A stretch of 51,462 nt of DNA from a virus: the UHGV virus genome UHGV-0127437, one strand, 5' to 3'. This document shows, piece by piece, positions 50 through 42,692 of this stretch. The notes under the pieces are model-generated. The model was given only the letters and a program-made list of their open reading frames with translations. It was not told the DNA's origin and made no database searches. Position numbers and translations under genes: made by a program. Position 1 is the first letter of the stretch. Each line of letters starts with the position of its first letter.

Positions 50-1315
50 TCACTTCACACGCAAAAGGTCTTCATATCGAGTGGTGTATCGCGGTGAGAG
101 CATCTCCCGCTTCATCTGCCACTGCTGTTGTATGCCCTGTCCGGCGAAGTAGAGCGTACCTACGCCGTCTTTGGTGTTGAGATGATCCAGCACCTTCATC
201 AGTTTGTCGCTATTGCGCCGCGGCGCGTTATCATCAAAAAGGTTGAGTTGTGCCACCCCCTGGCTGAAGAAGTCGCCGAGCATAACGCCTGCCTTCTGGT
301 AACGGCGTCCATCTTTCCAGACAGCATCCAGGCATCGCGTGGCCGCGCCGATAATGTCCCGGCTGTCCTGCGTCGGGGTCAGAAGCTTCACAGAGGCGCT
401 GTTGCCGTAATACGGTTCGTTCAGTGCAAACGGGCTTGTCTTCACGAACGCGGAGATAAACCGGCAATATTGATGCTCGCCGCGCAGCTTCTCCGCCGCC
501 CGGCTGGCGTAACTGAAAATCGCCTGACGCATCTCTTCGTAATCAGTGATACGACCACTGAAGGAGCGTGAGCAGACGATTTCCTGCTTTACTGGTGCAA
601 ACTCTTCCAGTTCCAGACACGGCTCACCACGCAGCTCGCGTACCGTTCTTTCGAGCACAACATTGAAATGCTTCTTGATAAACCGGATATCTGTGTCAGC
701 CAGGTCAAGAGCAGTTTCGATGCCCATCCCCTCCAGCTTTTTAGAGATGCGTCGCCCTATACCCCACACCTCGCCAACTGGCAGCGCAGCTAACAGTTTA
801 CGCTGCCGGCCCACGTTCGATAAATCAACAACACCACCAGTCTGTCGTTGCCACTTCTTTGCCGCATAGTTAGCCAGTTTCGCGAGGGTTTTTGTCTGCG
901 CAATACCGACACCGACGGTGAGATGTGTACGCTGTAATACTGTAGTGCGGATCTCCCGGCCAAATTCAGTAAGATCACGGCAGTTTCGCACGCCAGTCAT
1001 GTCACAAAATGCCTCGTCTATGCTGTAAATTTCGACGCGGGGACTAATTTCTTCCAGCGTTGTCATTACGCGATTCGACATATCAGCGTAAAGCTCATAG
1101 TTACTGGAGAACGCGACGATGCCGTGACGGCGAAAAGTCTCTTTTTGTTTGAAATAGGGCTCCCCCATTTTAACAAAGGACTTCGCTGCTGCTGAACGGG
1201 CAATAACACAGCCATCATTGTTAGAGAGAACGACAACCGGCCTTCCTTTTAGGTCTGGCCTGAACACCGTTTCACAACTCGCATAGAAGCTGTTCACGTC
1301 TACGAGTGCAAACAT
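50..1315 (-). CDS. umuC: DNA polymerase V catalytic subunit UmuC (Y-family translesion polymerase)
   Basis: 421-aa ORF. The N-terminus MFALVDVNSFYASCE...VVVLSNNDGCVIARS is the UmuC/Y-family signature. It starts directly after the stop of the umuD-like ORF. Confidence 0.9.
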   Translation of the reverse strand: MFALVDVNSFYASCETVFRPDLKGRPVVVLSNNDGCVIARSAAAKSFVKMGEPYFKQKETFRRHGIVAFSSNYELYADMSNRVMTTLEEISPRVEIYSIDEAFCDMTGVRNCRDLTEFGREIRTTVLQRTHLTVGVGIAQTKTLAKLANYAAKKWQRQTGGVVDLSNVGRQRKLLAALPVGEVWGIGRRISKKLEGMGIETALDLADTDIRFIKKHFNVVLERTVRELRGEPCLELEEFAPVKQEIVCSRSFSGRITDYEEMRQAIFSYASRAAEKLRGEHQYCRFISAFVKTSPFALNEPYYGNSASVKLLTPTQDSRDIIGAATRCLDAVWKDGRRYQKAGVMLGDFFSQGVAQLNLFDDNAPRRNSDKLMKVLDHLNTKDGVGTLYFAGQGIQQQWQMKREMLSPRYTTRYEDLLRVK

Positions 1316-1317
1316 AC

Positions 1318-1734
1318 TCAGCCAGCAGACTTCACGATGTAAGTTACGACGCCGAAAACCTCCAGATTGTCTTCACTTCCAATCATGATTGGTTTATACA
1401 CAGAGTTTTCAGGCTTGAGCATGACAGCAGGATGCAGCAACAGGCGCTTAACTGTGAACTCACCGTCGACCGCTGCAATGACAATGTCCCCATGCCCTGC
1501 TTTTCGTGAACTGTCGACTACCAACAAATCGCCTTCGCCGATTCCGGCATCACGCATAGAATCTCCTGTGGCCTTCACGAAATACGTCGCGCTTGGGTGC
1601 CTCACCAGCAATTCGTTAAGGTCTATACGCGACTCAACATAGTCCTGAGCAGGGGAAGGAAACCCGCATTGCACAAGGTCACTAAACATTGGGAGCGCCA
1701 CATGGCGTAGATCTGTAGGCGTGAAAAACTGCAT
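1318..1734 (-). CDS. umuD: UmuD (S24 self-cleaving accessory subunit of Pol V)
   Basis: [13 protein letters not shown]...ATGDSM...[17 protein letters not shown] matches UmuD. The track start 1743 is a GTG. The ATG at 1734 has AAGGTG 6 nt upstream. Confidence 0.9.
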
Positions 1735-1752
1735 GATAATCACCTTAATTGA

Positions 1753-1772: not shown

Positions 1773-2034
1773 TTATTGTATCAATGGCAGCGATCAAGTC
1801 TCTTAGAAGTACAACACGGTAAGTAACTGGCGTGAGGTGAAATTTAGTTTTGTGGGACATCATCGGCGACCTGCACTATCGAACGATCGCCAACTGGCCG
1901 CATCAGTGTCTTGCATACGCTCTGGTGAGTAAACTTGACGACCCTTCGCCTTTAACGCCCCTCTATCATGTATGTCGATCAAGTACCGCGTTAGTGCTAC
2001 ACTTGCACTCTTTCAGAATTCACTGATTTTTCAC

Positions 2035-2397
2035 ATGTTAAAGCTATTTAGTCGATATGTTTCGGTTGGTGTTGTGAACACCGCGATTCATTGGTTATGC
2101 TTTGCTGGTTTGCTTCACTTCTTTGGCGCCAGCCAGGCCATTTCCAATGTTACGGCATTTTGCGTGGCTGTAACTTTTAGCTTCTTCGCTAATGCAAAGT
2201 TTACTTTCAACTCTCAGGCTACGACCGGGCGTTACATTGCGTTCGTCGTATTCATGGGGGTTATGGCTATGCTCACTGGGTTTATCGCAGATCAACTCAA
2301 GGCACCACCGATTTTAACGCTTGTGGCGTTCTCGGCTTTCAGCCTGATCGCGGGATTTATCTACTCAAAATTCATAGTATTTAGGGATGCTAAATGA
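2035..2397 (+). CDS. gtrA: GtrA-family bactoprenol-glucose flippase
   Basis: 120-aa polytopic membrane protein ([20 protein letters not shown]...YSKFIVF) immediately upstream of gtrB with an overlapping stop/start. Confidence 0.8.
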
Positions 2398-3314
2398 AAA
2401 TCTCTCTGATCGTTCCGGTCTTCAATGAAGAGGCCACGATACCGATTTTCTACAAAACGGTTCGGGAATTCGACGAATTAAAACAACATGAAGTTGAGAT
2501 AGTATTCATCAACGATGGCAGCAAAGACACAACGGAATCAATTATCAATGCGCTTGCTGTATCCGATCCGCTCGTCATGCCATTATCATTTACCCGTAAT
2601 TTTGGCAAGGAGCCAGCTTTGTTTGCCGGGCTTGATCACGCAACAGGTGATGCTGTTATCCCTATCGATGTCGATTTACAAGACCCCATTGAAGTTATCC
2701 CGCATCTGATAGAGAAATGGCAGGCTGGCGCTGATATGGTTCTGGCTAAACGCACCGATCGTTCAACGGATGGAAGGCTAAAACGAAAGACCGCAGAATG
2801 GTTCTACAAGTTACACAACAAAATCAGCAACCCACAGATCGAAGAGAATGTGGGTGATTTCCGTCTCATGTCCCGTGAGGTTGTGGAAAACATTAAGCTA
2901 ATGCCAGAACGTAACTTGTTCATGAAAGGCGTTCTTAGCTGGGTTGGCGGAAAGACTGACGTTGTGGAATATGCCCGCGGCGAGCGCGTAGCTGGTGACT
3001 CTAAATTCAATGGCTGGAAATTATGGAATCTGGCTCTTGAAGGGATCACCTCCTTCTCAACGTTTCCGCTACGCATGTGGACATACATTGGCCTTTTTGT
3101 CGCAGGTCTGTCATTCCTGTATGGGGCATGGATGATTGTTGATAAGTTATTTTTCGGCAACAGCGTCCCTGGCTATCCGTCGCTGCTTGTATCAATACTT
3201 TTCTTGGGGGGTATTCAACTTATTGGGATCGGTGTTCTTGGTGAGTATATAGGAAGAATTTATATAGAAACAAAGAAAAGACCAAAATATATTTTGGGGA
3301 AACGCAAAAAATGA
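2394..3314 (+). CDS. gtrB: GtrB bactoprenol glucosyltransferase (GT2)
   Basis: [13 protein letters not shown]...INDGSKD...DVDLQDP is a GT2 DxD-type N-terminal domain. Two C-terminal TM helices complete the typical GtrB architecture. Confidence 0.9.
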
Positions 3315-4909
3315 GAATAACGAAGATTTTTATTGTCACTTTGACATTCATTGTTATAAGTCTGCCTTTATTTGGTCACTTCTGGACGTCAGGAGACCTG
3401 TCCGCCCATTATTATAGGCTCATATCTATAAAACATCAGTTGGAAACACATCAGTTTCCGATGTATTTCGATTTCGTAACTGATAACATGCAAGGGTATG
3501 GATATTCATGGAATTTATTTTACCCTCCACTGACAGCTTTTCTGTATACAATTATAGAGCTATTAAGCTTTAATAGCATTGATGCTGTTATACAGTTAAA
3601 AATAAGCATAGCAATAATCTCAGCAATAAATTTTTTTATTATGTATTTTTCTGTAAAGAGAATTTTCAACTCTTCACAAATTGCTTTTATCTCAGCGATA
3701 CTATCCGTTACATCATACTATTTTCTATACAATCAATACACTCGCTCTGCATTTCCTGAAGCTCTTGCTATGAGCTTTGTACCCTTGTTACTTTTGGGGC
3801 TATTTGGGTACATCAACAACAATAAAAATAAAATTTATTTACCATTGTCGTTTTCGTTAATACTGTTAACAAATATACCCGCAACCATTGTCACTCTTAT
3901 ATTTATAACTTTATTTGTAGTAATCTTTCATAAGAAATTCATAGAACAATATCGAGATGTAATTTTACATTCATTTATAGTTATTGGTATAACGTCATTT
4001 TTTATACTTCCGCTTTATTACACATCTAAAGGTGACATTTACGCCTTTACATCTATGAAATCAAGTTATGAATCAATGTGGAAGCTAACCATACCAGTTA
4101 TTAACTTAATCATACCGACAAGAACAACGGAGTACCCTTTCAGACTTATTACACCGGGATGGGTTATAATGGGGCTAATAATAGCCTTGTTCACCATGAA
4201 AAAAAATGGTGATAAATTATCTTCCATGCTTGATGGGCACCATAAGGTGGCTATTTCAATATCTTTATTATTCATAATAATGTGCTCACAAATGTTCCCA
4301 TGGAATCACATACCAAAACAGCTTCCGGTACTTAATTTCATTCAGTTCCCCTGGCGAATGATGCTTATATCATCGCCAATCCTGTGCATTTTCGCTGCTC
4401 TAACTCTTGTCAAAATCGCCCAAGAATCCCAAGGGAAGAAAGGTTTAATTTATATTGTCATATTTTCATCAATTATTCTTTCTATGTATGCGTCAACAAG
4501 TCCATTCGATAACAAGGCGAGACTGCCATGGTATCAAGTATATCTTGATTACATGCCTAACAACATGGCGAGAAAAATAAATGAAATTAAAAAAACCAAA
4601 AAAGAACCTATAGTGTTAAGTGGAAATGGAAGTATTGTAAGCGCTAGATTAACTGGCGGCTATCCAACATATAAATATATTTGCATGGATGATTGTACAA
4701 TTCAACTTCCTGTAATTCCTTATAGAGGATATGAGGTAGAAGGAGTTAAATCTTTTTCTGAAAACAACATGGGGTTGATGCAGGTTAACGTATCAAAAGG
4801 GAGTGGGCAAATAAATTTAAAATATAATCCAATTATTATCTACATATCATACGGAATTACGTTAATCACAATAATATTGTTGTTATATTTTACAAGAAGA
4901 AAATCATGA
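3311..4909 (+). CDS. GtrC-type serotype-specific O-antigen glucosyltransferase (large polytopic membrane protein)
   Basis: 532-aa, very AT-rich, multi-TM ORF in the third position of a gtrAB cassette. The call rests on position and architecture, not on sequence recognition. Confidence 0.6.
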
Positions 4910-4941: not shown

Positions 4942-6978
4942 TTAAACTATATTACCCACACCATCTTTCCACGCACTTCCTGTCCATGTGATAGCATAAC
5001 CAAGAGTTGTATCCAGTATCTGCGCTCCTGCATCTGCTGCGTTTAATGAAGGGCGTAGTGCGGTCGTAAAGCTCGGTATCCGCACAGGTTTGTTAGCCTG
5101 TATGACGTTGTTCGGAGAAGTAATGTTACCAAAAGAACCAGATACTACGTGGATGACTGCGTAGCGATAACGTAACGCACCTACGCCAGTCCCTTCATCA
5201 GTGCCTAATGAAATAGTGCCGTCTCTGTGTGGCCGCAGGTACGCATGGCTACCTGACTCGTATACCGGGCCGAGGCGCATTGGGTTGGCGGTGCCGATAC
5301 AGATCCAGTTGGCAGAGAATAGCCGGTTATATGCTGTAGGGGCAGACCCATCAACATTATTGACTGTCAGGTCACTGACACCCAAGCCGTTGTGCCCACC
5401 AATAATACTCACTCGACCCGTAAGGTTAGTCATATAGTGGGTTCCAGCTTCACTATAGGTGTTTACCAAGTTAACGTTCGCTACCCGGTTCATGTAGAGA
5501 TTCCCTACACGAATGGTCGTGTTAACAAAGAATAGCTTGCTGCCGCGCCCATCCTGCCATTCTTTCGGATAACCGTTGACTGACGTTGTACCACTCCCAG
5601 ATCCGTCTGTAGCGTAATCGTTCATTCGGTTCGCGGGTTTCTCTGCGGTGTTTATCGCGGCATCGAGGTAAACCCCGCGAATGACGCTATTTGAGAAAAA
5701 CAGGTCGGACGTTCCTGTGCCGCCCCAAATCCAGTTAAGCGCGTAGCCGTTAGCCCCTTGCGGGTATTTAGTCCCGTCCCGGATATCCCGGTCAGTACCC
5801 TTTAGTTTCAACCCATACGAGCTAATCGCGCTTACCAACTGAGTGGGCTGTTTTGGGTCGAGAGGCCATGCAAAGAAATTATCGAATGACAAATCGCACA
5901 TGCTTTGACTGTTGATGCGCCCATTGATATTGAACGTATTGCCAGAACCGTTATTCTGGTCAGATCGGGAGCAGTCGAGGAGAACTGCATCATTCGCAAA
6001 GTAGCCGATAACCGCAGTACCAGACAAGGTTAACCCTGACACTGCCGGAACAAACAGGCCATATGAGAAGCACGCCGTTGCCCCGACGTCATCCACCCCG
6101 GTCAGCGATGGCGCTTCAAGAGTCCCGTCTGTCCGTTTGCGCCACCCCATCAGCACAACGTTGTTGATTGAGATTCCGTGGTCGCAAATACATAAGCCTG
6201 CACTGATCGCCGGGTCATCAGCGCCCTCTACAACGTCTGTCAGGACGTACGTTGCGGGGGTGCCTTTGAGGTTAAATCGGGTAAATCCCGGATCACTGAT
6301 AAGCGTCGCGAGTGTCGTCGCCTCATGACGCATACTATGTGAACGCACCGTGACGGCCTGCGCACCGGTAATGGTCGTGTTTCGTGGGATCATTCCCCAT
6401 TCAATATCAAAATCACCTGGGGGGAAGTGGCAGTTCCTACCAGCATTCTCATCTAAAAACGCCTGGATTTCTTCTTTTGTTGCGCCGCTTCCCCCCGTGA
6501 AATACACGTCATAAGACAGCCGTTCTGCAACCGTCACATCACCATAGCCGATCTGATCTGCACCGGTTGGCAGCGCCAGTTCGCGGCGCAGGACATCGCT
6601 GACATCTACGGCCAGCCATTTTCCGACACCTGTACCGCCGGATGAATCTGGAGTAGAGCCTGGCGGAACGGTTTTCGGTAGGGTCGTTAGATCATCCCAG
6701 CGATACCATGCGCCTGTTGTCTCATCCTGAATGATGTCACCGGCGGAATTAATAACCGCCCCGCCCTGAAATGTCCCGACTGGATTTAAGCCGAGGTTCG
6801 CGAGCGCTGTTTTATAACGCTCTTCCATTCCATGCCACGTAAGGCGCGGCACGCCAAAACGGTCATCCCATGTTTCATTAACCCGGTCATTCGAAAGGTG
6901 ATCAAAGTTCTGTGCGTTATCGTAAAGAACCTTGGCGGATGCAGAACCAAGAGGTTCATTGGTGTTATAGGTGGTCAT
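4942..6978 (-). CDS. Tailspike / receptor-binding protein (probable beta-helix O-antigen depolymerase)
   Basis: 678-aa terminal gene of the tail module next to gtrABC. It is Gly/Asn/Thr-rich and repetitive, like beta-helix tailspikes. The N-terminal ~120 aa look like a conserved adaptor domain. Confidence 0.6.
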   Translation of the reverse strand: MTTYNTNEPLGSASAKVLYDNAQNFDHLSNDRVNETWDDRFGVPRLTWHGMEERYKTALANLGLNPVGTFQGGAVINSAGDIIQDETTGAWYRWDDLTTLPKTVPPGSTPDSSGGTGVGKWLAVDVSDVLRRELALPTGADQIGYGDVTVAERLSYDVYFTGGSGATKEEIQAFLDENAGRNCHFPPGDFDIEWGMIPRNTTITGAQAVTVRSHSMRHEATTLATLISDPGFTRFNLKGTPATYVLTDVVEGADDPAISAGLCICDHGISINNVVLMGWRKRTDGTLEAPSLTGVDDVGATACFSYGLFVPAVSGLTLSGTAVIGYFANDAVLLDCSRSDQNNGSGNTFNINGRINSQSMCDLSFDNFFAWPLDPKQPTQLVSAISSYGLKLKGTDRDIRDGTKYPQGANGYALNWIWGGTGTSDLFFSNSVIRGVYLDAAINTAEKPANRMNDYATDGSGSGTTSVNGYPKEWQDGRGSKLFFVNTTIRVGNLYMNRVANVNLVNTYSEAGTHYMTNLTGRVSIIGGHNGLGVSDLTVNNVDGSAPTAYNRLFSANWICIGTANPMRLGPVYESGSHAYLRPHRDGTISLGTDEGTGVGALRYRYAVIHVVSGSFGNITSPNNVIQANKPVRIPSFTTALRPSLNAADAGAQILDTTLGYAITWTGSAWKDGVGNIV

Positions 6979-32663: not shown

Positions 32664-32897
32664 TTAGTAAAACCAGTCGTCGGCGCTTTCCCAGGTCTCC
32701 TGAAGAATCTCCTCAATGCGCTGCTTGTCCCCTTTTTCACCCCCCAGAATACTCAGGCCATCAGCCCCGGCGCGGCGAATTGTAAGTTTGACCCCTTCAT
32801 AGTTCTGGCTGAGCCTGCGTAACAGTTCGGCTTCTAATGCTGGCACTGCGCCATCAGGAAGTTTCTTTGTTCGATCAATAGTTAACTCAACTTTCAT
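32664..32897 (-). CDS. dinI: DinI-family DNA-damage-inducible protein
   Basis: MKVELTIDRTKKLPDGAVPALEAELLRRL...GGEKGDKQRIEEILQETWESADDWFY closely parallels E. coli DinI (...KEDKQRISEILQETWESADDWF). The ATG at 32897 has GGAGG upstream. Confidence 0.9.
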   Translation of the reverse strand: MKVELTIDRTKKLPDGAVPALEAELLRRLSQNYEGVKLTIRRAGADGLSILGGEKGDKQRIEEILQETWESADDWFY

Positions 32898-32915
32898 AGT
32901 GGCCTCCATTGCGTA

Positions 32916-32935
32916 TACTGTATTTTTATACAGTA
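32916..32935 (-). promoter_or_regulatory. LexA (SOS) box upstream of the dinI-like gene
   Basis: TACTGTATTTTTATACAGTA is a perfect CTGT-N8-ACAG palindrome 19 nt upstream of the dinI ATG. Confidence 0.9.
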
Positions 32936-33006
32936 TACCTATAAAACGAAATGATCAACGTTTTAAGAGCACGAATTGTTAACCCATAGACACAAATTTC
33001 AGGCGT

Positions 33007-33028
33007 AAAAAAACCCGCCGAAGCGGGT
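33007..33028 (-). terminator. Intrinsic terminator ending the upstream two-gene cassette
   Basis: On the minus strand: ACCCGC-TTCG-GCGGGT followed by TTTTTTTAC. Confidence 0.75.
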
Positions 33029-33173
33029 TTAATCATTAAGAGCATTTGCATCTGTGGCAGGTGAGGAGTTCATATTGTGCTCGCATTTAAGTCCCCTTAA
33101 ATGCGCAGAAGCCGCAATCGGGTGTTCAGTCCGACTGCGATTTAATTATTGCTGGTTGATTATTAAAAATCGA

Positions 33174-33437
33174 TCAACACTGATATGGAGGAATTTGGTA
33201 CCTTGCGATCGCGTCTTGAGGATTTTCAGGGAAAACACCATCTCGAGTTGCGATTAAGTATGTTGCCCCACCAAAAAAATGTCTAACAACAAAATAATCT
33301 TTCATAATCGGCGTTTGTGTCTGGTCTGAAGCAAGAGGCTCAGTTGGCAACTGAATTATGGACTCTCCGTTATAGTTCTCAAGTGTTGCAATCTTATATT
33401 TACGGACTTTATCGCAAGCTAAAAAATGAGTGCTCAC
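33174..33437 (-). CDS. Hypothetical 87-aa protein (second gene of an overlapping pair)
   Basis: Its GTG start forms a GTGA overlap with the upstream stop and is preceded by GGAGGAGGAG. The gene is AT-rich. Confidence 0.5.
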   Translation of the reverse strand: MSTHFLACDKVRKYKIATLENYNGESIIQLPTEPLASDQTQTPIMKDYFVVRHFFGGATYLIATRDGVFPENPQDAIARYQIPPYQC

Positions 33438-33664
33438 TTCTCCTCCTCCTGTTTTAAGTATACCGAATCGCTACCTTGAAGTAAGGTTATCGGTTGCTCG
33501 GAGGAAATCTTTACCCTCCACTGGGTAATTTCGAAAATGCTCTTGCTTCTTAGTGATGACAAACATGCTCTTGCAACCGTTTTACGTGATACTTGGACGG
33601 CAAGGCCAGTGTTAACCTTGCCTCGCTCATTCTGTGACTTTGCCGCACTGTTAAAATCACTCAT
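33434..33664 (-). CDS. Hypothetical 76-aa protein (first gene of an overlapping pair)
   Basis: ATG with GAGG 7 nt upstream. The gene is AT-rich and I recognise no family. Confidence 0.5.
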   Translation of the reverse strand: MSDFNSAAKSQNERGKVNTGLAVQVSRKTVARACLSSLRSKSIFEITQWRVKISSEQPITLLQGSDSVYLKQEEEK

Positions 33665-33826: not shown

Positions 33827-34393
33827 CTATATGCTCAAGATAATAATATCACGCCCCAATAACACACTTACAATTGCGGGCCAATGACTAAAAATGAATA
33901 CAACCAAAGAGATGAGACATATTACAAAGATAATAATGCATAACCACTTCATTGAAAGGTATAATAACTCACCTCTTTTCACTCGCTTCCACTCTTTTTT
34001 TAATACATTATGGCTTGCCATGGTGAAATCATCGATATCTTCTTTTAAATCTGAAGAAGGTGTTCCAGAAGATACTTTAACATTAAGTAATTTAATGGCA
34101 TCTCTTAGAACAGTTTCTTCTCTTGAAGGTTTACTATGATTGAGCCTGAGATAAATTTCTGATTGAACTACTGTGATCCCTTTGTATGCAGATTTTCGTT
34201 CTTCATCTGAAACTTCCGAGTCTCTTCTCAATACATCATAAAATCCAAGCAGGTTTGAAAGAGCTTGCCTTAATTCAGAGATCCATGCCTGACGGAACTC
34301 AGATGTTTTTAGTTCCTTAGTAATAACAAGACTAATCATCGCGCCAATTGCGGCTAAAAATGCTATAATTACAGCAATGACAGGTTCATTCAC
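33827..34393 (-). CDS. Membrane protein with N- and C-terminal TM helices flanking a ~130-aa helical domain
   Basis: 188 aa with a GTG start. TM segments are VIAVIIAFLAAIGAMISLVI and LCIIIFVICLISLVVFIF. It is very AT-rich and divergent from the next operon. Confidence 0.55.
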   Translation of the reverse strand: MNEPVIAVIIAFLAAIGAMISLVITKELKTSEFRQAWISELRQALSNLLGFYDVLRRDSEVSDEERKSAYKGITVVQSEIYLRLNHSKPSREETVLRDAIKLLNVKVSSGTPSSDLKEDIDDFTMASHNVLKKEWKRVKRGELLYLSMKWLCIIIFVICLISLVVFIFSHWPAIVSVLLGRDIIILSI

Positions 34394-34495
34394 TTTTCTT
34401 ACCCCTAAAATAATTAGCCTAAAAGCTCCTGAAATCAGAATATCTAATCTTACTGGATATAAATTTAAAGATAGACTTTAAAGCCAAACCTAGTA

Positions 34496-34504
34496 TGTTA
34501 GAAT
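34496..34504 (+). promoter_or_regulatory. Extended -10 promoter element (TGtTAGAAT) for the membrane-protein/methyltransferase operon
   Basis: TG-n-TAGAAT lies 50 nt upstream of the ATG at 34555, with TTTAAA about 16 nt further upstream. Confidence 0.4.
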
Positions 34505-34554
34505 AACCTTTTAACAAGAAGTTTGTCGACATTTTAACGTAACCGAGAAGTAAA

Positions 34555-35136
34555 ATGAACGCTAACTCACAGCCAACGCCAGATCAAGAAATCAAGATCG
34601 AGGTCATCCGCTGGCATCAAAAACTCCAGGAAATCACCTACATCGAAGCTGGTCAACACATGCGTGCTTTGAACCAACTGATGTGGCAGATTCCAAGTCT
34701 GGTAATCGCCATTAATGGTGGGCTCTGGTATGCTGCTACACTAGTTAATGAAGCCTCACTTTGGATGATTTTTGCTTTTTTAACAGTTTTCGACCTGCTC
34801 ACTATTTGCACGCTTTTTCGACTTAGGGTTCTGATAGGAAAAAAAATAACCAAACAAAATGATATTGAAGAACTATCGAAAAATAGCATACTTCAAGACC
34901 TTAGTAATAAATCCGGCATAATAATCTCACCTACCCCAGCTCCTAAAAAAGAGAGCAAGTTCATTGTAGTTGGATGCTGGACCATATGCTTATTGCTCTG
35001 CGCTATTATTAATTTTCATGGCTCATTTAATCCGTCGATATTTTCAAAACCTAGCGAAAACAATAAGTCCGAACAAAACACAACTCACCTCATCTGTGTT
35101 TCTAAGACAGCACCCACAAATGGAGAAATAAAATGA
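34555..35136 (+). CDS. Three-TM membrane protein of unknown function
   Basis: 193 aa with GAGAAG upstream. Two adjacent TM helices follow an N-terminal amphipathic helix, and a third TM lies near residue 135. It is AT-rich. Confidence 0.6.
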   Translation: MNANSQPTPDQEIKIEVIRWHQKLQEITYIEAGQHMRALNQLMWQIPSLVIAINGGLWYAATLVNEASLWMIFAFLTVFDLLTICTLFRLRVLIGKKITKQNDIEELSKNSILQDLSNKSGIIISPTPAPKKESKFIVVGCWTICLLLCAIINFHGSFNPSIFSKPSENNKSEQNTTHLICVSKTAPTNGEIK

Positions 35137-35738
35137 CCACATGGAAATTTTATGATGACAATGCCTTACGTTTATTTAATGACTATCAATCCCTAAATTT
35201 TAAAGATATATTTTCTGACGTTGAATCCTACTTCCTTGCTTCCCGCGGAGATGCTCTGGACGTAGGTGCTGGTTCTGGAAGGGATTCTGCTGCTTTATTT
35301 AAAATGGGCTACAATGTAACAGCTGTAGAGCCAAGCGATAACATGCGAAATCTTGCGGCCGAAAATCATAAGCACTGTGATATTACTTGGGTCAATGATT
35401 CATTGCCTGAACTAAGAAAGATCACTCAATCACTAAAGACCTTTGACCTTATAATTGTTAGTGCAGTCTGGATGCACCTAAATGAAAACCAGCAGGAGAG
35501 GTCGTTATTTACTCTATTCAATCTTCTATCCGCCAATGGAGTTATGATCATTACATTGCGATTAGGGCCAGCCGAACCCGATAGACAAATCAGTGTGATT
35601 TACACAGAAGATTTAATTGCTCTTTCAAAAAAATTAGGGCTAACGGTTGAATATATTAGCCCTGTCAATACGGATAGTTTTAATAGACCATCCGTTACTT
35701 GGCAAAAAGTGGTTTTATCTAAAAAAACCACTTCATAG
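35133..35738 (+). CDS. Class I SAM-dependent methyltransferase (small-molecule/protein type)
   Basis: Motif I is ALDVGAGSGRDSAALFKMGYNVTAVEP and post-I is DLIIVSAVWMHL. There is no DPPY/NPPY DNA-MTase motif. It has an ATGA overlap with the upstream membrane ORF and GGAGAA as SD. Confidence 0.75.
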   Translation: MTTWKFYDDNALRLFNDYQSLNFKDIFSDVESYFLASRGDALDVGAGSGRDSAALFKMGYNVTAVEPSDNMRNLAAENHKHCDITWVNDSLPELRKITQSLKTFDLIIVSAVWMHLNENQQERSLFTLFNLLSANGVMIITLRLGPAEPDRQISVIYTEDLIALSKKLGLTVEYISPVNTDSFNRPSVTWQKVVLSKKTTS

Positions 35739-35744
35739 ATGCCA

Positions 35745-36989
35745 TTACTCACAAAGCCCATAACGTGATGAACAGACCTCGGTATTCAGGCTTGATTTGA
35801 CCAAGTCGTAGACTTTCCCCCCGCGACCTGTTTTGGCCCACTCCACAACTTCATCAACACTTGGCGAGTTCAGGTTTGCGCGAGGTCCATAGAACCCAGA
35901 CCAATCAATATGCTGCACCTCAGGTTCTAACCCATAGAGCTGCACATTTCTACCAAGGGGCAGGTCAAACGACTTCATCCAGCGCTGGTTTATCTCGCCA
36001 ACACTCATCCAGTGAACCCAGCGAGACGTTAGACGAACCTTCAGCTCCCACTCTTTGTGCTTCTCAATATGCTCCGGCCAGCGCGAAAATGTCTCAGCAA
36101 TTTCTTCTTTGTTACACAGCACGCAATTCATACAACCGACACGTGAGGCTCCCTGCGTGTAAAGCGGGTTTGGCGATATCCCGAAGTATTTGTGGAGCGC
36201 GAATACATCTGTGGCCGTCCACTGGTGAATGGGAAGGAAGTTATACAAAAAATCCGGGTCACGCTTGTCAGTGGAGAAGCGCTCATAGCTGGCTCTCTTT
36301 GATGACTCATCTGCCCGTACACCAGACCACTGGACGACCACGTCGCCATCATCCAGCATTGGTTGCAGAGCTTTATCAAAGGCGATCTGAATTTTGAGCT
36401 CATCGGTACAGAATCGGTCGCGAAGCATCGGAAATTTACCATGCAACAGTGCGCAGTCTAGAAAGCTATTTCCGCTTGGATGCATAACAGACAGAGCAGC
36501 ATCCAGCGCAGTTTCGAATTCAATTCCCCAACGCTCAGCAGTACGCAGCCAGGCCTGCCCAAACGCTGTATCGGAGCGGCCGAGTGAAGGCATAACAACA
36601 CCCCTATATGCCCCCATACGAATGGCCTGACGCTTAACCCAGTTCTTCTGGATGTATCCTCGGCGGCGTTCAAAATCAACCTCGGTATATATCCGCTTAA
36701 CAACCTGAACTGGCGCGCATCCAATCTGTTCATGGATAGTTTTTGCGAACTGTACGGTAAGCTCGTGTTCATTATCTGTATCAGCCATAACAGCCTGAAC
36801 TCTACCGCCAAACAATGCATGGGCAACTGCCAGAGTGGCCGTGCTGTCCTTTCCTGCTGAATAATTGACGACGATTTTGTGATCATCAGGGATGCGGAAT
36901 TCAGTGAGGTAGCGATTATAGGCCAATCCAATTTCGCGAATTTTTTCGCTGATGTCGGTCGGTGCAATAATCATTGCTGCGTTGCTCAT
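35745..36989 (-). CDS. PAPS-reductase-family PP-loop ATP pyrophosphatase (DndC/SspD/IbrA-like)
   Basis: 414 aa. PP-loop VVNYSAGKDST, plus the CysH-type C-terminal signature PIHQWTATDVFALH...NPLYTQGASRVGCMNCVLC. Confidence 0.75.
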   Translation of the reverse strand: MSNAAMIIAPTDISEKIREIGLAYNRYLTEFRIPDDHKIVVNYSAGKDSTATLAVAHALFGGRVQAVMADTDNEHELTVQFAKTIHEQIGCAPVQVVKRIYTEVDFERRRGYIQKNWVKRQAIRMGAYRGVVMPSLGRSDTAFGQAWLRTAERWGIEFETALDAALSVMHPSGNSFLDCALLHGKFPMLRDRFCTDELKIQIAFDKALQPMLDDGDVVVQWSGVRADESSKRASYERFSTDKRDPDFLYNFLPIHQWTATDVFALHKYFGISPNPLYTQGASRVGCMNCVLCNKEEIAETFSRWPEHIEKHKEWELKVRLTSRWVHWMSVGEINQRWMKSFDLPLGRNVQLYGLEPEVQHIDWSGFYGPRANLNSPSVDEVVEWAKTGRGGKVYDLVKSSLNTEVCSSRYGLCE

Positions 36990-41256: not shown

Positions 41257-41274
41257 TATTCAATTTATTGAGTG

Positions 41275-41293
41275 TGTAAACTAACCATTTACA
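41275..41293. promoter_or_regulatory. Operator OR-b (tgtaaactaaccatttaca)
   Basis: 19-bp palindrome TGTAAA-N7-TTTACA, 47 bp from OR-a and 9 nt upstream of the repressor ATG. Confidence 0.55.
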
Positions 41294-41301
41294 ATGAGAG
41301 A

Positions 41302-41685
41302 ATGAGAAAAGAAGAACCCAACAAAGCATTGATAGCGCGACTCAATGAGGTCTATGCCAGAGGCATTACCAAAGCAGATATGGCGCGAATAGCCGGAGTC
41401 TCGCCTCAGGCGGTCAATAGCTGGTTTAAAAAAGGCGTTATTAGCAAAAAATCAGCACTGGCTATAGCCGATGCTGTTGGCGTTTCGATCGCCTGGCTAC
41501 TCGGGGAAGATGTCGGCGAGAAAGATGGTATGAAGCCCGACGAGCAGCGCCTGCTGGAACTCTATCGCCAGTTGCCGGAAGAAGAGCAGCAGAACATGTT
41601 GCGGATCGTGTCTCTGCGCCTTAAGGAACTCGACGAGCTGTACGCCAAGTACATGGGACGGCGGATTAAGGGTGATGCGGAATAA
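41302..41685 (+). CDS. Prophage repressor (CI-like HTH) lacking an S24 autocleavage domain
   Basis: 127 aa from the ATG at 41302. The HTH_3-type segment is ITKADMARIAGVSPQAVNSWFKKG, followed by a short helical C-terminus. It is divergent from cro. Confidence 0.75.
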   Translation: MRKEEPNKALIARLNEVYARGITKADMARIAGVSPQAVNSWFKKGVISKKSALAIADAVGVSIAWLLGEDVGEKDGMKPDEQRLLELYRQLPEEEQQNMLRIVSLRLKELDELYAKYMGRRIKGDAE

Positions 41686-41771: not shown

Positions 41772-42692
41772 GTGGGAATGGTAATGGAAGCACCTTATCA
41801 ATTAGAATTCACTGAAAACATTTATTATTCAATAGGTAATAACCCCAGCATTAAAGAAATCATTGAGTCTCTTCAAGGCTGGGAAGCTATTATCAAACAA
41901 TCTAAAGGAGTCCTTGCAGAGCTAACTGGAAGTGATATCCTGGATATTGAAGTTAGGGTTCAAAAGTTAGAAGTCGGGAGCCTAACTGAAAAAATTCTTA
42001 TCAAGTTAGGTTTTGGCAACGAAGAGAATTTTGATAAATTTCTCGAAAATGCGCATGAAAGGTACATCGGAGAAGGAAAAATGCGTAGCGCCTTAGTTTG
42101 GACGGTTATAGCAGGTGTACTCGCCACGGGTATGTATTTAGCCGTCAAAAACATGGCACCCAATAATGCCTCCCACTTCGAAGCAAATAATAATATAATC
42201 ATTAACATAGGTGCTGGCGAAACTAACATTTCACCTGAAAGAATACAGTCGGTGCTCAATAGTACATTAGTTGATAAAAAAACCGCTGCCAAAGGTGCTG
42301 TCAAAATTTTATCTCCAGCGCGAAATGACGAAAATGCAACATTAATGATAGGTAGCGATAACACTTCCGTAACAATACCTTCAGATTTAATCTCTAAAAC
42401 ACCAACCGAGGTTAGTTTTGAAGCTGATACATATACTCGAGACCATTACGATGTTGACCTTGAGATAAGAGCTCTTGATCTCGACAATCCGACAAAGGGA
42501 TGGGCTGCCGTGATTCCTGGCTTAGTTGATCGAAGGGTAAAACTAGTTTTGGCACCCGGGATTAAACCAGAAGACCTATCCCATAAATTCGCCTTCCGCG
42601 CTGATGTAACCATTACTTATAAACTTACGTCATCTAAAGGCGAAGCATACAAGCCAACAGAAATATTTTTAAGCAAATTAATCGCGGAATGA
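41772..42692 (+). CDS. Unrecognised single-pass membrane protein co-oriented with the repressor (rex/sie position)
   Basis: About 302-306 aa, with possible starts at GTG 41772, ATG 41778 or ATG 41784. It has a central TM (ALVWTVIAGVLATGMYLAV), is AT-rich, and ends at a terminator. Confidence 0.65.
   Translation: MGMVMEAPYQLEFTENIYYSIGNNPSIKEIIESLQGWEAIIKQSKGVLAELTGSDILDIEVRVQKLEVGSLTEKILIKLGFGNEENFDKFLENAHERYIGEGKMRSALVWTVIAGVLATGMYLAVKNMAPNNASHFEANNNIIINIGAGETNISPERIQSVLNSTLVDKKTAAKGAVKILSPARNDENATLMIGSDNTSVTIPSDLISKTPTEVSFEADTYTRDHYDVDLEIRALDLDNPTKGWAAVIPGLVDRRVKLVLAPGIKPEDLSHKFAFRADVTITYKLTSSKGEAYKPTEIFLSKLIAE

Follow-up and report, generated by a model that had tools for sequence, protein, structure and literature searches.

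The nin-region island

The stretch of DNA analysed here, UHGV virus genome UHGV-0127437 (51,462 nucleotides, hereafter the window), is a Citrobacter koseri lambdoid prophage (ATCC BAA-895, CP000822.1) that carries an AT-rich island between its replication and nin/Q genes. Two of the island's genes, one for a membrane protein of 193 amino acids (aa) and one for a 201-aa S-adenosylmethionine (SAM) methyltransferase, form a bicistron, and this pair is a candidate for a defence module, carried by the prophage, whose effector is the membrane protein. The island as a whole is best read as two unrelated pieces of prophage cargo, the bicistron (34555-35738) and a gene for a 188-aa membrane protein that diverges from it. 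The features of the locus are as follows.

33827-34393, minus strand: gene for the 188-aa membrane protein, with a GTG start (open reading frame list)
34394-34554: divergent intergenic region of 161 bp, GC 0.29
34555-35136, plus strand: gene for the 193-aa membrane protein, first of the bicistron (open reading frame list)
35133-35738, plus strand: gene for the 201-aa SAM methyltransferase, second of the bicistron (open reading frame list)
35745-36989, minus strand: gene for a 414-aa PP-loop protein resembling phosphoadenosine phosphosulfate (PAPS) reductase, DndC and SspD, in the phage early operon (open reading frame list, Pfam)

An earlier account of this locus, made from the letters alone and termed here the sequence-only reading, had given these open reading frames and coordinates, the ATGA stop/start overlap that joins the 193-aa and 201-aa genes (read directly: AAAATGACC) and the convergent junction at which 6 nts (35739-35744) separate the stop codon of the methyltransferase gene from that of the PAPS-reductase-like gene; all were reproduced from the sequence. 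Its contrast of an AT-rich island with a backbone of about 50% GC is borne out by a GC profile (0.371 for the island versus 0.497 for the window). Equally low GC is present in just 2% of windows of the same size, the remainder of which are the gtr operon. By part, the values are 0.353 for the 188-aa gene, 0.292 for the intergenic region, 0.397 for the membrane gene of the bicistron and 0.383 for the methyltransferase gene (0.39 for the pair), with 0.500 for the PAPS-reductase-like gene. The minus-strand early operon is indeed interrupted, the bicistron genes being the only ones on the plus strand between about 29 and 40 kb, and the view of the island as AT-rich foreign DNA, carried as cargo by a lambdoid prophage within its nin region, is supported. 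Searches of phage and E. coli collections for near-identical DNA gave no match to the island.

The close apposition of the methyltransferase and PAPS-reductase-like gene ends recurs elsewhere: the distance is 11 bp in E. coli, and in Klebsiella (L006 7190-7208) the two genes overlap by 19 bp. There is no space for terminators between them, and convergent transcription must therefore collide.

A conserved pair of genes

The adjacency of the two genes was counted in about 70 loci that have a strong match to the membrane protein and sufficient contig reach (drawn from Enterobacterales, Burkholderia, Methylotenera, Microvirgula and metagenomes). In every one of them the methyltransferase gene comes next after the membrane gene and in the same orientation, in nearly all cases at a distance of -3 to +16 bp. 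The pairwise identities of the two proteins are tightly correlated (r=0.93 over 120 pairs), and both can be parts of a single polypeptide of 331-391 aa (L162, L164, L165 and 13 of the 145 representatives listed at 50% identity). The bicistron is conserved as a real unit of two genes. It is already present, as the hypothetical Orf2 and Orf3, in Escherichia phage phi458. The synteny that the sequence-only reading wished to see checked holds for the order of membrane gene and methyltransferase gene, but the 188-aa gene is not part of it.

The pair sits at positions where prophages carry cargo, i.e. in the nin region, in the exo-xis region or just after gene P, and its neighbours across loci are NACHT, toxin-antitoxin, dnd and transposase genes, in keeping with the defence-type setting that had been proposed. 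Beyond the methyltransferase domain, it has no matching system or family in PADLOC, Pfam, PHROG or NCBIfam. The PADLOC scan covered six proteins around the island and, at the level of hidden Markov models (HMMs), agrees with the expectation that no described defence system would match. Full-text literature searches found no description of the pair, nor of the methyltransferase-HNH fusions or of a methyltransferase partner for nucleases with a sulfur-binding domain (SBD), both of which are dealt with below.

Some neighbouring genes deserve record in their own right. In the prophage nin hotspot of K. aerogenes (L100-L102; 7390-10395, 1646-3667), the pair is by genes for a 633-aa NACHT protein, a DUF6998 protein and a 673-aa HATPase_c_3 protein. 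In Burkholderia (L010 7532-11835, L011 1871-6174), unannotated genes for proteins of 616, 515 and 301 aa come directly after it, with a weak AAA_16 match; the trio is set amid toxin-antitoxin and transposase genes, and may be another candidate system.

The methyltransferase and its nuclease-linked relatives

The 201-aa protein is a class I SAM methyltransferase (Methyltransf_25 3.8e-12; Pfam TehB 31.5 bits, above cut-off) in which the SAM motif, LDVGAGSGRD, is intact. That it is such an enzyme without a DNA-methyltransferase motif had been proposed and is confirmed, as [DNS]PP[YFW] is absent from its sequence. It is a single compact domain that resembles in structure the methyltransferases of small molecules, peptides and tRNA, and it has weak similarities to TPMT and TehB (thiol/chalcogen methylases). 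The fold is of the small-molecule or peptide type and not that of a DNA methylase.

What the sequence-only reading overlooked is the large nuclease-linked family to which this enzyme belongs. The METHYLTRANSFERASE family is present in at least 555 species. Outside the SAM site, it has its own conserved residues (W113-M114-H115, R143, R151, D181, R185 and W190), and the window methyltransferase carries all the invariant columns of the family alignment A1 (LDVGAGSGRD, EP, SAVWMH, TLR-G, R151, D181, R185, W190). It is 35-45% identical to members that are linked to HNH, SBD or PLD-helicase partners.

Partners were counted in the best 80 species-level loci of the family. In 48 of these the methyltransferase is the N-terminal part of a fusion whose C-terminal module, about 370 aa long, has an HNH_4 nuclease at its end (four of the 48 also adjoin a PLD-helicase), and one further locus has the split version. 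Five have an SBD nuclease as coupled neighbour, 2-4 are coupled to a PLD-ResIII-S24-DUF3427 protein of 1,097-1,104 aa (PADLOC mREase_IV 5.8e-114), and in three the partner is the membrane protein. The methyltransferase-HNH fusions are about 560-600 aa long with a conserved middle, LPDDGTGALP...STYKLGLLR (e.g. L022, L025, L027, L034, L039 and L059); 46 of them were used to build a model of the C-terminal HNH_4 module. In Marinobacter such fusions are directly after the PLD-helicase gene. PADLOC matches nothing in the fusions beyond the methyltransferase and HNH domains. The middle domain was considered as a possible SBD, which was rejected (hhalign probability 0.2%; a PDB profile search likewise gave no detectable relation).

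The stand-alone methyltransferases are translationally coupled to SBD-HNH_2 or SBD-NOV_C proteins (L055 5983-7727, L023, L065, L073, L078). The proteins of about 375 aa downstream of them, first considered as split HNH_4 modules, were shown to be SBD-HNH_2 instead. The Vibrio partner protein matches the NCBIfam model 'phosphorothioated DNA-binding restriction endonuclease' (1.2e-17) and, among structures, SBD 8h0l (1.7e-26) and HNH 6yex (3e-30).

A constant enzyme with interchangeable nuclease or membrane partners, in fused and split forms, is the usual signature of conflict systems in comparative genomics. The pair is a good candidate for an anti-virus system because relatives of its enzyme are fused to, or beside, nucleases in hundreds of bacteria.

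The 193-aa membrane protein

Homologues of the 193-aa protein, of which 66 were found, are present in Klebsiella (84% identity), E. coli (58%; a cluster on 393 contigs), K. aerogenes, Serratia, Burkholderia, Microvirgula and metagenomes. The membrane module is nevertheless rare, with 225 representatives at E<=1e-3 among 1.84 billion proteins. It had been described as a protein with three transmembrane helices. Three hydrophobic segments are present (48-64, 72-88 and 136-152), but the first is marginal (KD 1.54) and is below threshold in most homologues. At the edge of this first segment is an invariant juxtamembrane motif, E-AGQH-R-LNQ-MWQ-P...GGLWY, and an AlphaFold2 (AF2) model (pLDDT 72.6) has helices at 9-63, 66-105 and 137-158.

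No Pfam, PHROG, NCBIfam or PADLOC family matches the protein at a meaningful level. Against Pfam plus PADLOC, both membrane families of the island give just noise-like sub-threshold matches (DUF7321, TraS, LeoBC, 1TM/2TM effectors). A resemblance of the 193-aa protein to SLATT modules had been suggested and was not substantiated: when 32 members of the family, i.e. the protein and 31 relatives, were scanned singly, no SLATT model matched even at E<=1.

In another type of fusion, an RNase_T (DEDDh) exonuclease precedes the membrane module (L159 5152-6408, L161 591-1610, P0366). In P0396 it is preceded by another N-terminal domain of about 250 aa. The 193-aa protein is predicted to be an effector or a membrane anchor.

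The 188-aa membrane protein as separate cargo

The 188-aa protein has the hydrophobic segments near both ends, 8-24 and 151-167, that the sequence-only reading had assigned to it. Two motifs, TKExKTSEFRQAWI and LKKEWKRVKRGE, are invariant in its family. C. koseri ABV13020.1 is identical to it (100%) and carries the UniRef name SLATT-domain protein. That name was not reproduced here, as none of 33 family members scanned singly matched a SLATT model at E<=1, and no Pfam, PHROG, NCBIfam or PADLOC family matches the protein at a meaningful level.

The proposal that the 188-aa protein, the 193-aa protein and the methyltransferase make up one defence system has in its favour their adjacency, their common AT-richness and the divergent layout in C. 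koseri and its Klebsiella relatives. The 188-aa family has 120 matches in IMG/VR, but the pair is missing within 5 kb in 79 of the 80 best of these loci (the exception is the C. koseri prophage itself), relatives at 35-41% identity are found alone in Pantoea and Kosakonia prophages, and pairs that lack the 188-aa gene are found in E. coli, Enterobacter, K. aerogenes, Burkholderia and metagenomes. The 188-aa gene is seen beside the pair only in the Citrobacter/Klebsiella clade, and for this reason most pair loci lack it. The two membrane families are also unrelated; a common origin of the 188-aa and 193-aa proteins was considered and rejected (hhalign probability 0.5%). The three-gene model fails because the genes occur independently of each other, an outcome that the sequence-only reading had itself named as fatal to it, and we regard a single system of all three as highly improbable. 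Temperate phages commonly carry the 188-aa gene as membrane cargo in its own right, a single gene that is here a chance neighbour of the bicistron.

The convergent PAPS-reductase-like gene

The PAPS-reductase-like gene accompanies the pair far more regularly than the 188-aa gene does, a fact that the sequence-only reading overlooked. Its 414-aa product matches Pfam PAPS_reduct (1.3e-23) and the PADLOC models SspD (1.3e-17), BrxP (1.6e-15) and DndC (1.8e-8), but is below every NCBIfam cut-off (32 bits versus 290 for DndC). In almost all loci of Enterobacterales prophages, the PAPS_reduct gene is the immediate convergent neighbour of the methyltransferase gene. This holds both in the nin region (Citrobacter, Klebsiella, E. 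coli EC5) and between xis and exo (E. coli phi458 type), and it holds for two classes of PAPS protein that are only about 38% identical to each other. Among complete E. coli genomes, 29 have one PAPS type and 29 have the pair. In a second E. coli group, of 15 genomes, the PAPS gene is 73-74% identical; two were inspected, of which H79 has the pair and the other has different downstream genes. In the latter, E. coli strain 126 (L168 2414-5992), a 443-aa PAPS variant with a different C-terminal end is followed by same-strand genes for 287-, 62- and 350-aa products. The slot downstream of the PAPS-reductase gene seems to hold exchangeable cargo.

Links to sulfur-modification genes extend beyond the Enterobacterales. 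In Microvirgula the pair is divergent from dndBCDE; in Elioraea a methyltransferase-HNH fusion is directly upstream of dndC and dndD; and in an alphaproteobacterial metagenome-assembled genome (MAG), which also has a membrane-methyltransferase pair, such a fusion is convergent with a gene for a 416-aa PAPS_reduct protein. The association is not obligatory, as the pair is without PAPS_reduct in K. aerogenes (where it is by the NACHT gene), in another prophage, in Burkholderia and in most environmental loci, and the identity of the PAPS gene correlates moderately with that of the pair (r=0.57). The PAPS-reductase-like gene is a possible functional partner or trigger of the pair, whose link to sulfur-modification machinery is real but unexplained.

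Relation to described systems

The pair resembles enzyme-plus-membrane-effector defence systems, and its relatives resemble type IV restriction loci; in both cases the likeness is one of arrangement. With the CBASS 1TM/2TM/SLATT effectors and the 2TM effectors of retron and DRT systems, it shares a small membrane protein beside, or fused to, a cytoplasmic enzyme, a location in prophages or defence hotspots, and the alternation of fused and split forms. It differs from them in having no cyclase, TIR or reverse-transcriptase partner, in the lack of a SLATT or effector HMM match to the 193-aa family, and in that the partner is a SAM methyltransferase of the small-molecule type. We know of no described system that uses such an enzyme as the partner of a membrane effector. 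As to SLATT membership, no SLATT profile (Pfam SLATT_1-6, SLATT_fungal, NCBIfam) matches either membrane protein at E<=0.1, and no SMODS/CD-NTase, SLOG or TIR-type neighbours are present; the loci show methyltransferase, PAPS reductase and phage nin/replication genes.

Proteins translationally coupled to relatives of the methyltransferase that are 38-45% identical to it and retain its invariant residues are of the kinds known from type IV enzymes, both SBD-HNH (ScoMcrA, SprMcrA, EcoWI) and SauUSI-like PLD-helicase-DUF3427. The window module differs in that it is without nuclease and SBD, its partner being a membrane protein. As described, the type IV enzymes work singly and have no methyltransferase at their side (PMC6224610, PMC7461809); the stand-alone methyltransferases coupled to SBD proteins amount to a methyltransferase partner for enzymes described as solitary.

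The best PADLOC match of the methyltransferase is mad2 of the MADS system (PDLC04134; 2.1e-17, 61 bits), but only the Rossmann domain (positions 291-447 of 492) is matched. Eight genes make up the MADS operon, of which mad6-8 are mandatory, and its methylase is described as a DNA N6-methyltransferase marking TCAGNNNNTCC (bioRxiv 10.1101/2023.03.30.534895). The window module has two genes, no DPPY motif and a fold neighbourhood that is not that of DNA methylases; mad2 is the only mad match among the six proteins scanned, phage genes flank the bicistron, and the window methyltransferase does not have the character of a DNA N6-adenine methyltransferase. It is likewise distinct from the methylases of restriction-modification systems, as motif IV (DPPY-type or PC-type) is absent and the protein is a single compact domain of only 201 aa.

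TehA/TehB are also encoded as a bicistron of a membrane protein and a class I methyltransferase, and the Pfam TehB match is above cut-off. However, the NCBIfam TehB equivalogs score 21.7-31.3 bits versus cut-offs of 218-303, the window methyltransferase family is nuclease-linked, and there is no TehA-family match because the partner is a protein of about 190 aa with 2-3 hydrophobic segments and no Pfam family. With the type VII toxin-antitoxin systems, which have enzymatic antitoxins such as MntA or TakA, the pair may share, by resemblance only, an enzyme that chemically silences its partner, together with tight co-variation, but it would act by methylation, and on a membrane protein.

The 414-aa gene has domain-level similarity only to Dnd/Ssp components and no Dnd/Ssp partner among its neighbouring genes, though true dnd clusters adjoin relatives of the pair in other genomes. 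Term searches of two comparative-genomics papers on Dnd and BREX gave no mention of this methyltransferase. The pair falls outside every described group for which membership was tested, i.e. SLATT, MADS, TehAB, restriction-modification methylases and Dnd/Ssp.

What the pair may do

The reading that we prefer, and to which we give about an even chance, is that the pair is a defence or exclusion module expressed in the lysogen, with a membrane effector and a methyltransferase that serves as sensor or regulator, and that it is a branch of an undescribed family of conflict systems centred on this methyltransferase. With its own promoter region, its orientation counter to the early operon and its foreign composition, the pair appears to have the arrangement of a lysogen-expressed moron. 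The divergent region is 161 bp long, close to the 160 bp first given, and the extended -10 (TGnTAGAAT) noted in it is present as part of a sigma-70-like site, TTTAAA-N16-TG-n-TAGAAT, which a consensus scan places at 34477-34504 on the plus strand. The match to consensus is no better than chance, but this putative site could drive the bicistron independently of the early operon.

From the comparative data we infer a defence function, sensor and effector roles for the two proteins, a methylation target and silencing by convergent transcription. Across the family the methyltransferase would be the constant sensor or regulator and its partner the variable effector, whether HNH (fused), SBD nuclease, PLD-helicase or, in prophages, membrane protein. 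The 193-aa protein would be seated in the inner membrane, and the methyltransferase would be a dedicated cytoplasmic enzyme working with it. In the lysogen, the methyltransferase would hold the membrane protein inactive, either through methylation of the invariant motif on the cytoplasmic side or through a ligand that it consumes or binds; the methyl group might go to an invariant R, N or Q in that juxtamembrane motif, to a nucleotide-like ligand or to sulfur-modified DNA. An infecting phage would shift that state, and the membrane protein would then compromise the membrane (abortive infection) or block entry of DNA (exclusion). On prophage induction, convergent read-through from the early operon via the PAPS-reductase gene would silence the pair.

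Several points weigh against this. To our knowledge there is no precedent for a methyltransferase regulating effectors as unlike as nucleases and a membrane protein, and 21 of the 80 family loci have no recognised partner. HMM and structure searches gave no detectable relation of the 193-aa protein to known pore-forming or abortive-infection effectors. In its fusions, cytoplasmic enzymes are attached at each end of the module, which has three hydrophobic segments and a positively charged linker, and therefore at least one segment probably does not span the membrane; as it is also fused to enzymes, the protein could be a mere membrane anchor. Finally, the intergenic region has 5 promoter-like matches versus 8.2 expected from shuffled sequence.

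Strict pairing, translational coupling, co-variation and fusions would also suit an addiction module, one in which the 193-aa protein is a membrane toxin and the methyltransferase a type VII-like enzymatic antitoxin acting by methylation, so that what is served is the stability of the prophage or mobile element and not resistance to phages. The Burkholderia copies do sit among VapB, YhaV/PrlF and transposase genes, and the invariant polar motif by the membrane could serve as methyl acceptor. Yet the toxin would come first in the gene order and the enzyme is of similar size, and the fusion of the same methyltransferase in cis to nucleases in 48 of the 80 loci is unusual for a labile antitoxin. 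We consider such a module unlikely, and note that it overlaps the defence reading, many toxin-antitoxin systems being defensive. A membrane-tethered methyltransferase acting on small molecules or lipids, with the 193-aa protein as anchor or substrate channel, would instead confer a physiological trait on the lysogen. It might do so by TehAB-like detoxification of tellurite, selenite or thiols, or by methylation of quinones or phospholipids, and with these options taken together the chances are slim. The bicistron with its TehB-like domain fits, but all NCBIfam equivalogs, including TehB, UbiG and BioC, are far below cut-offs, a DEDDh exonuclease is another fusion partner of the membrane module, and a lipid or metalloid methylase leaves unexplained a family with invariant residues whose members are mostly nuclease- or SBD-linked.

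The constancy of the PAPS_reduct neighbour in Enterobacterales prophages, nin or exo-xis, raises the further alternative that the pair and the PAPS-reductase/DndC-like enzyme are one unit in sulfur nucleic-acid chemistry, the pair being an accessory or counter-defence that S-methylates a thiolated or phosphorothioated product, or else a guard against such modification. Both of the divergent PAPS classes adjoin the pair, the E. coli co-counts (29 and 29 genomes) and the pair in H79 are in line with it, and so are the dnd neighbours in Microvirgula and Elioraea, the PAPS_reduct neighbour in the alphaproteobacterial MAG, the coupling of methyltransferase relatives to SBD nucleases that recognise phosphorothioate DNA, and the weak TPMT and TehB similarities. 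The loci in which the pair is without PAPS_reduct tell against it, as does the E. coli genome in which the PAPS gene is followed by different cargo. The PAPS gene also has backbone GC (0.50, compared to 0.39 for the pair), the opposite strand, a different promoter and the lower identity correlation given above; no DndC/SspD-like protein is known to make phosphorothioate by itself, and enzymatic S-methylation of phosphorothioate is not described in the literature searched. We rate this unit as quite improbable. The same low rating is given to a broader version, in which the methyltransferase family as a whole is a sulfur-directed nucleic-acid immunity enzyme that recognises or S-methylates phosphorothioate or thiolated DNA or nucleotides from enzymes of the PAPS-reductase/DndC type. 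Such an enzyme would mark, destabilise or report sulfur DNA, the outcome being passed to HNH, SBD nuclease, PLD-helicase or membrane protein.

Other cargo in the prophage

The preferred reading, of a lysogen-expressed defence or exclusion module, concerns the bicistron; the prophage has other regions of unusual composition or content. A second AT-rich cargo block (GC 0.38) is at 1972-4909 on the plus strand, beside the tailspike gene (4942-6978, minus strand). Its operon encodes gtrA-like, gtrB-like (Glycos_transf_2) and gtrC-like membrane proteins, in the layout of cassettes for O-antigen glucosylation (serotype conversion). At the left edge of the window (50-1743, minus strand) are a umuC-like gene at 50-1315 (IMS family 1.1e-38) and a umuD-like gene at 1318-1743, the latter so labelled by position and size only; the two may be genes of the prophage or of the chromosome.

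Just downstream of the 188-aa gene, at 32664-33664 on the minus strand, three small genes lie in lower-GC DNA. They encode a HolE-like protein (DNA polymerase III theta; 33434-33664, minus strand; phrog_1105 6e-14), a DinI-family protein (32664-32909, minus strand; 1.6e-26) and an 87-aa protein (phrog_37071). The HolE-like and DinI-family genes look like small modulators of the replisome or of the SOS response.

A 306-aa open reading frame at 41772-42692 (plus strand; GC about 0.40-0.45) is without Pfam match and has as neighbour a 137-aa open reading frame at 41272-41685. In L013, which is the same prophage, the counterparts are an HTH_3/Phage_CI_repr repressor and a product of roughly 302 aa without Pfam match. 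The 306-aa frame may be another cargo gene expressed in the lysogen.

Implications

With the gene grouping corrected, the 188-aa gene merits study on its own. The pair is easy to test because it is small (1.3 kb), self-contained and present in prophages of E. coli, Klebsiella and Citrobacter. If the sulfur-directed role considered above for the methyltransferase family were true, an enzyme that alkylates a modification of the DNA backbone would be new to biochemistry, and more than 500 species would have a modification-sensing defence of a new class. Whatever the chemistry, the recurrent links to phosphorothioate-binding nucleases and DndC-like proteins raise the question of how cells and phages sense or exploit sulfur-modified DNA.

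If the pair defends against phages, it would be a system that has a SAM methyltransferase of the small-molecule type as its constant component, and we know of no described defence system with such an enzyme at its core. It would then also be the entry to a family, found in the at least 555 species mentioned and consisting mostly of methyltransferase-HNH fusions, that current defence catalogues do not recognise.

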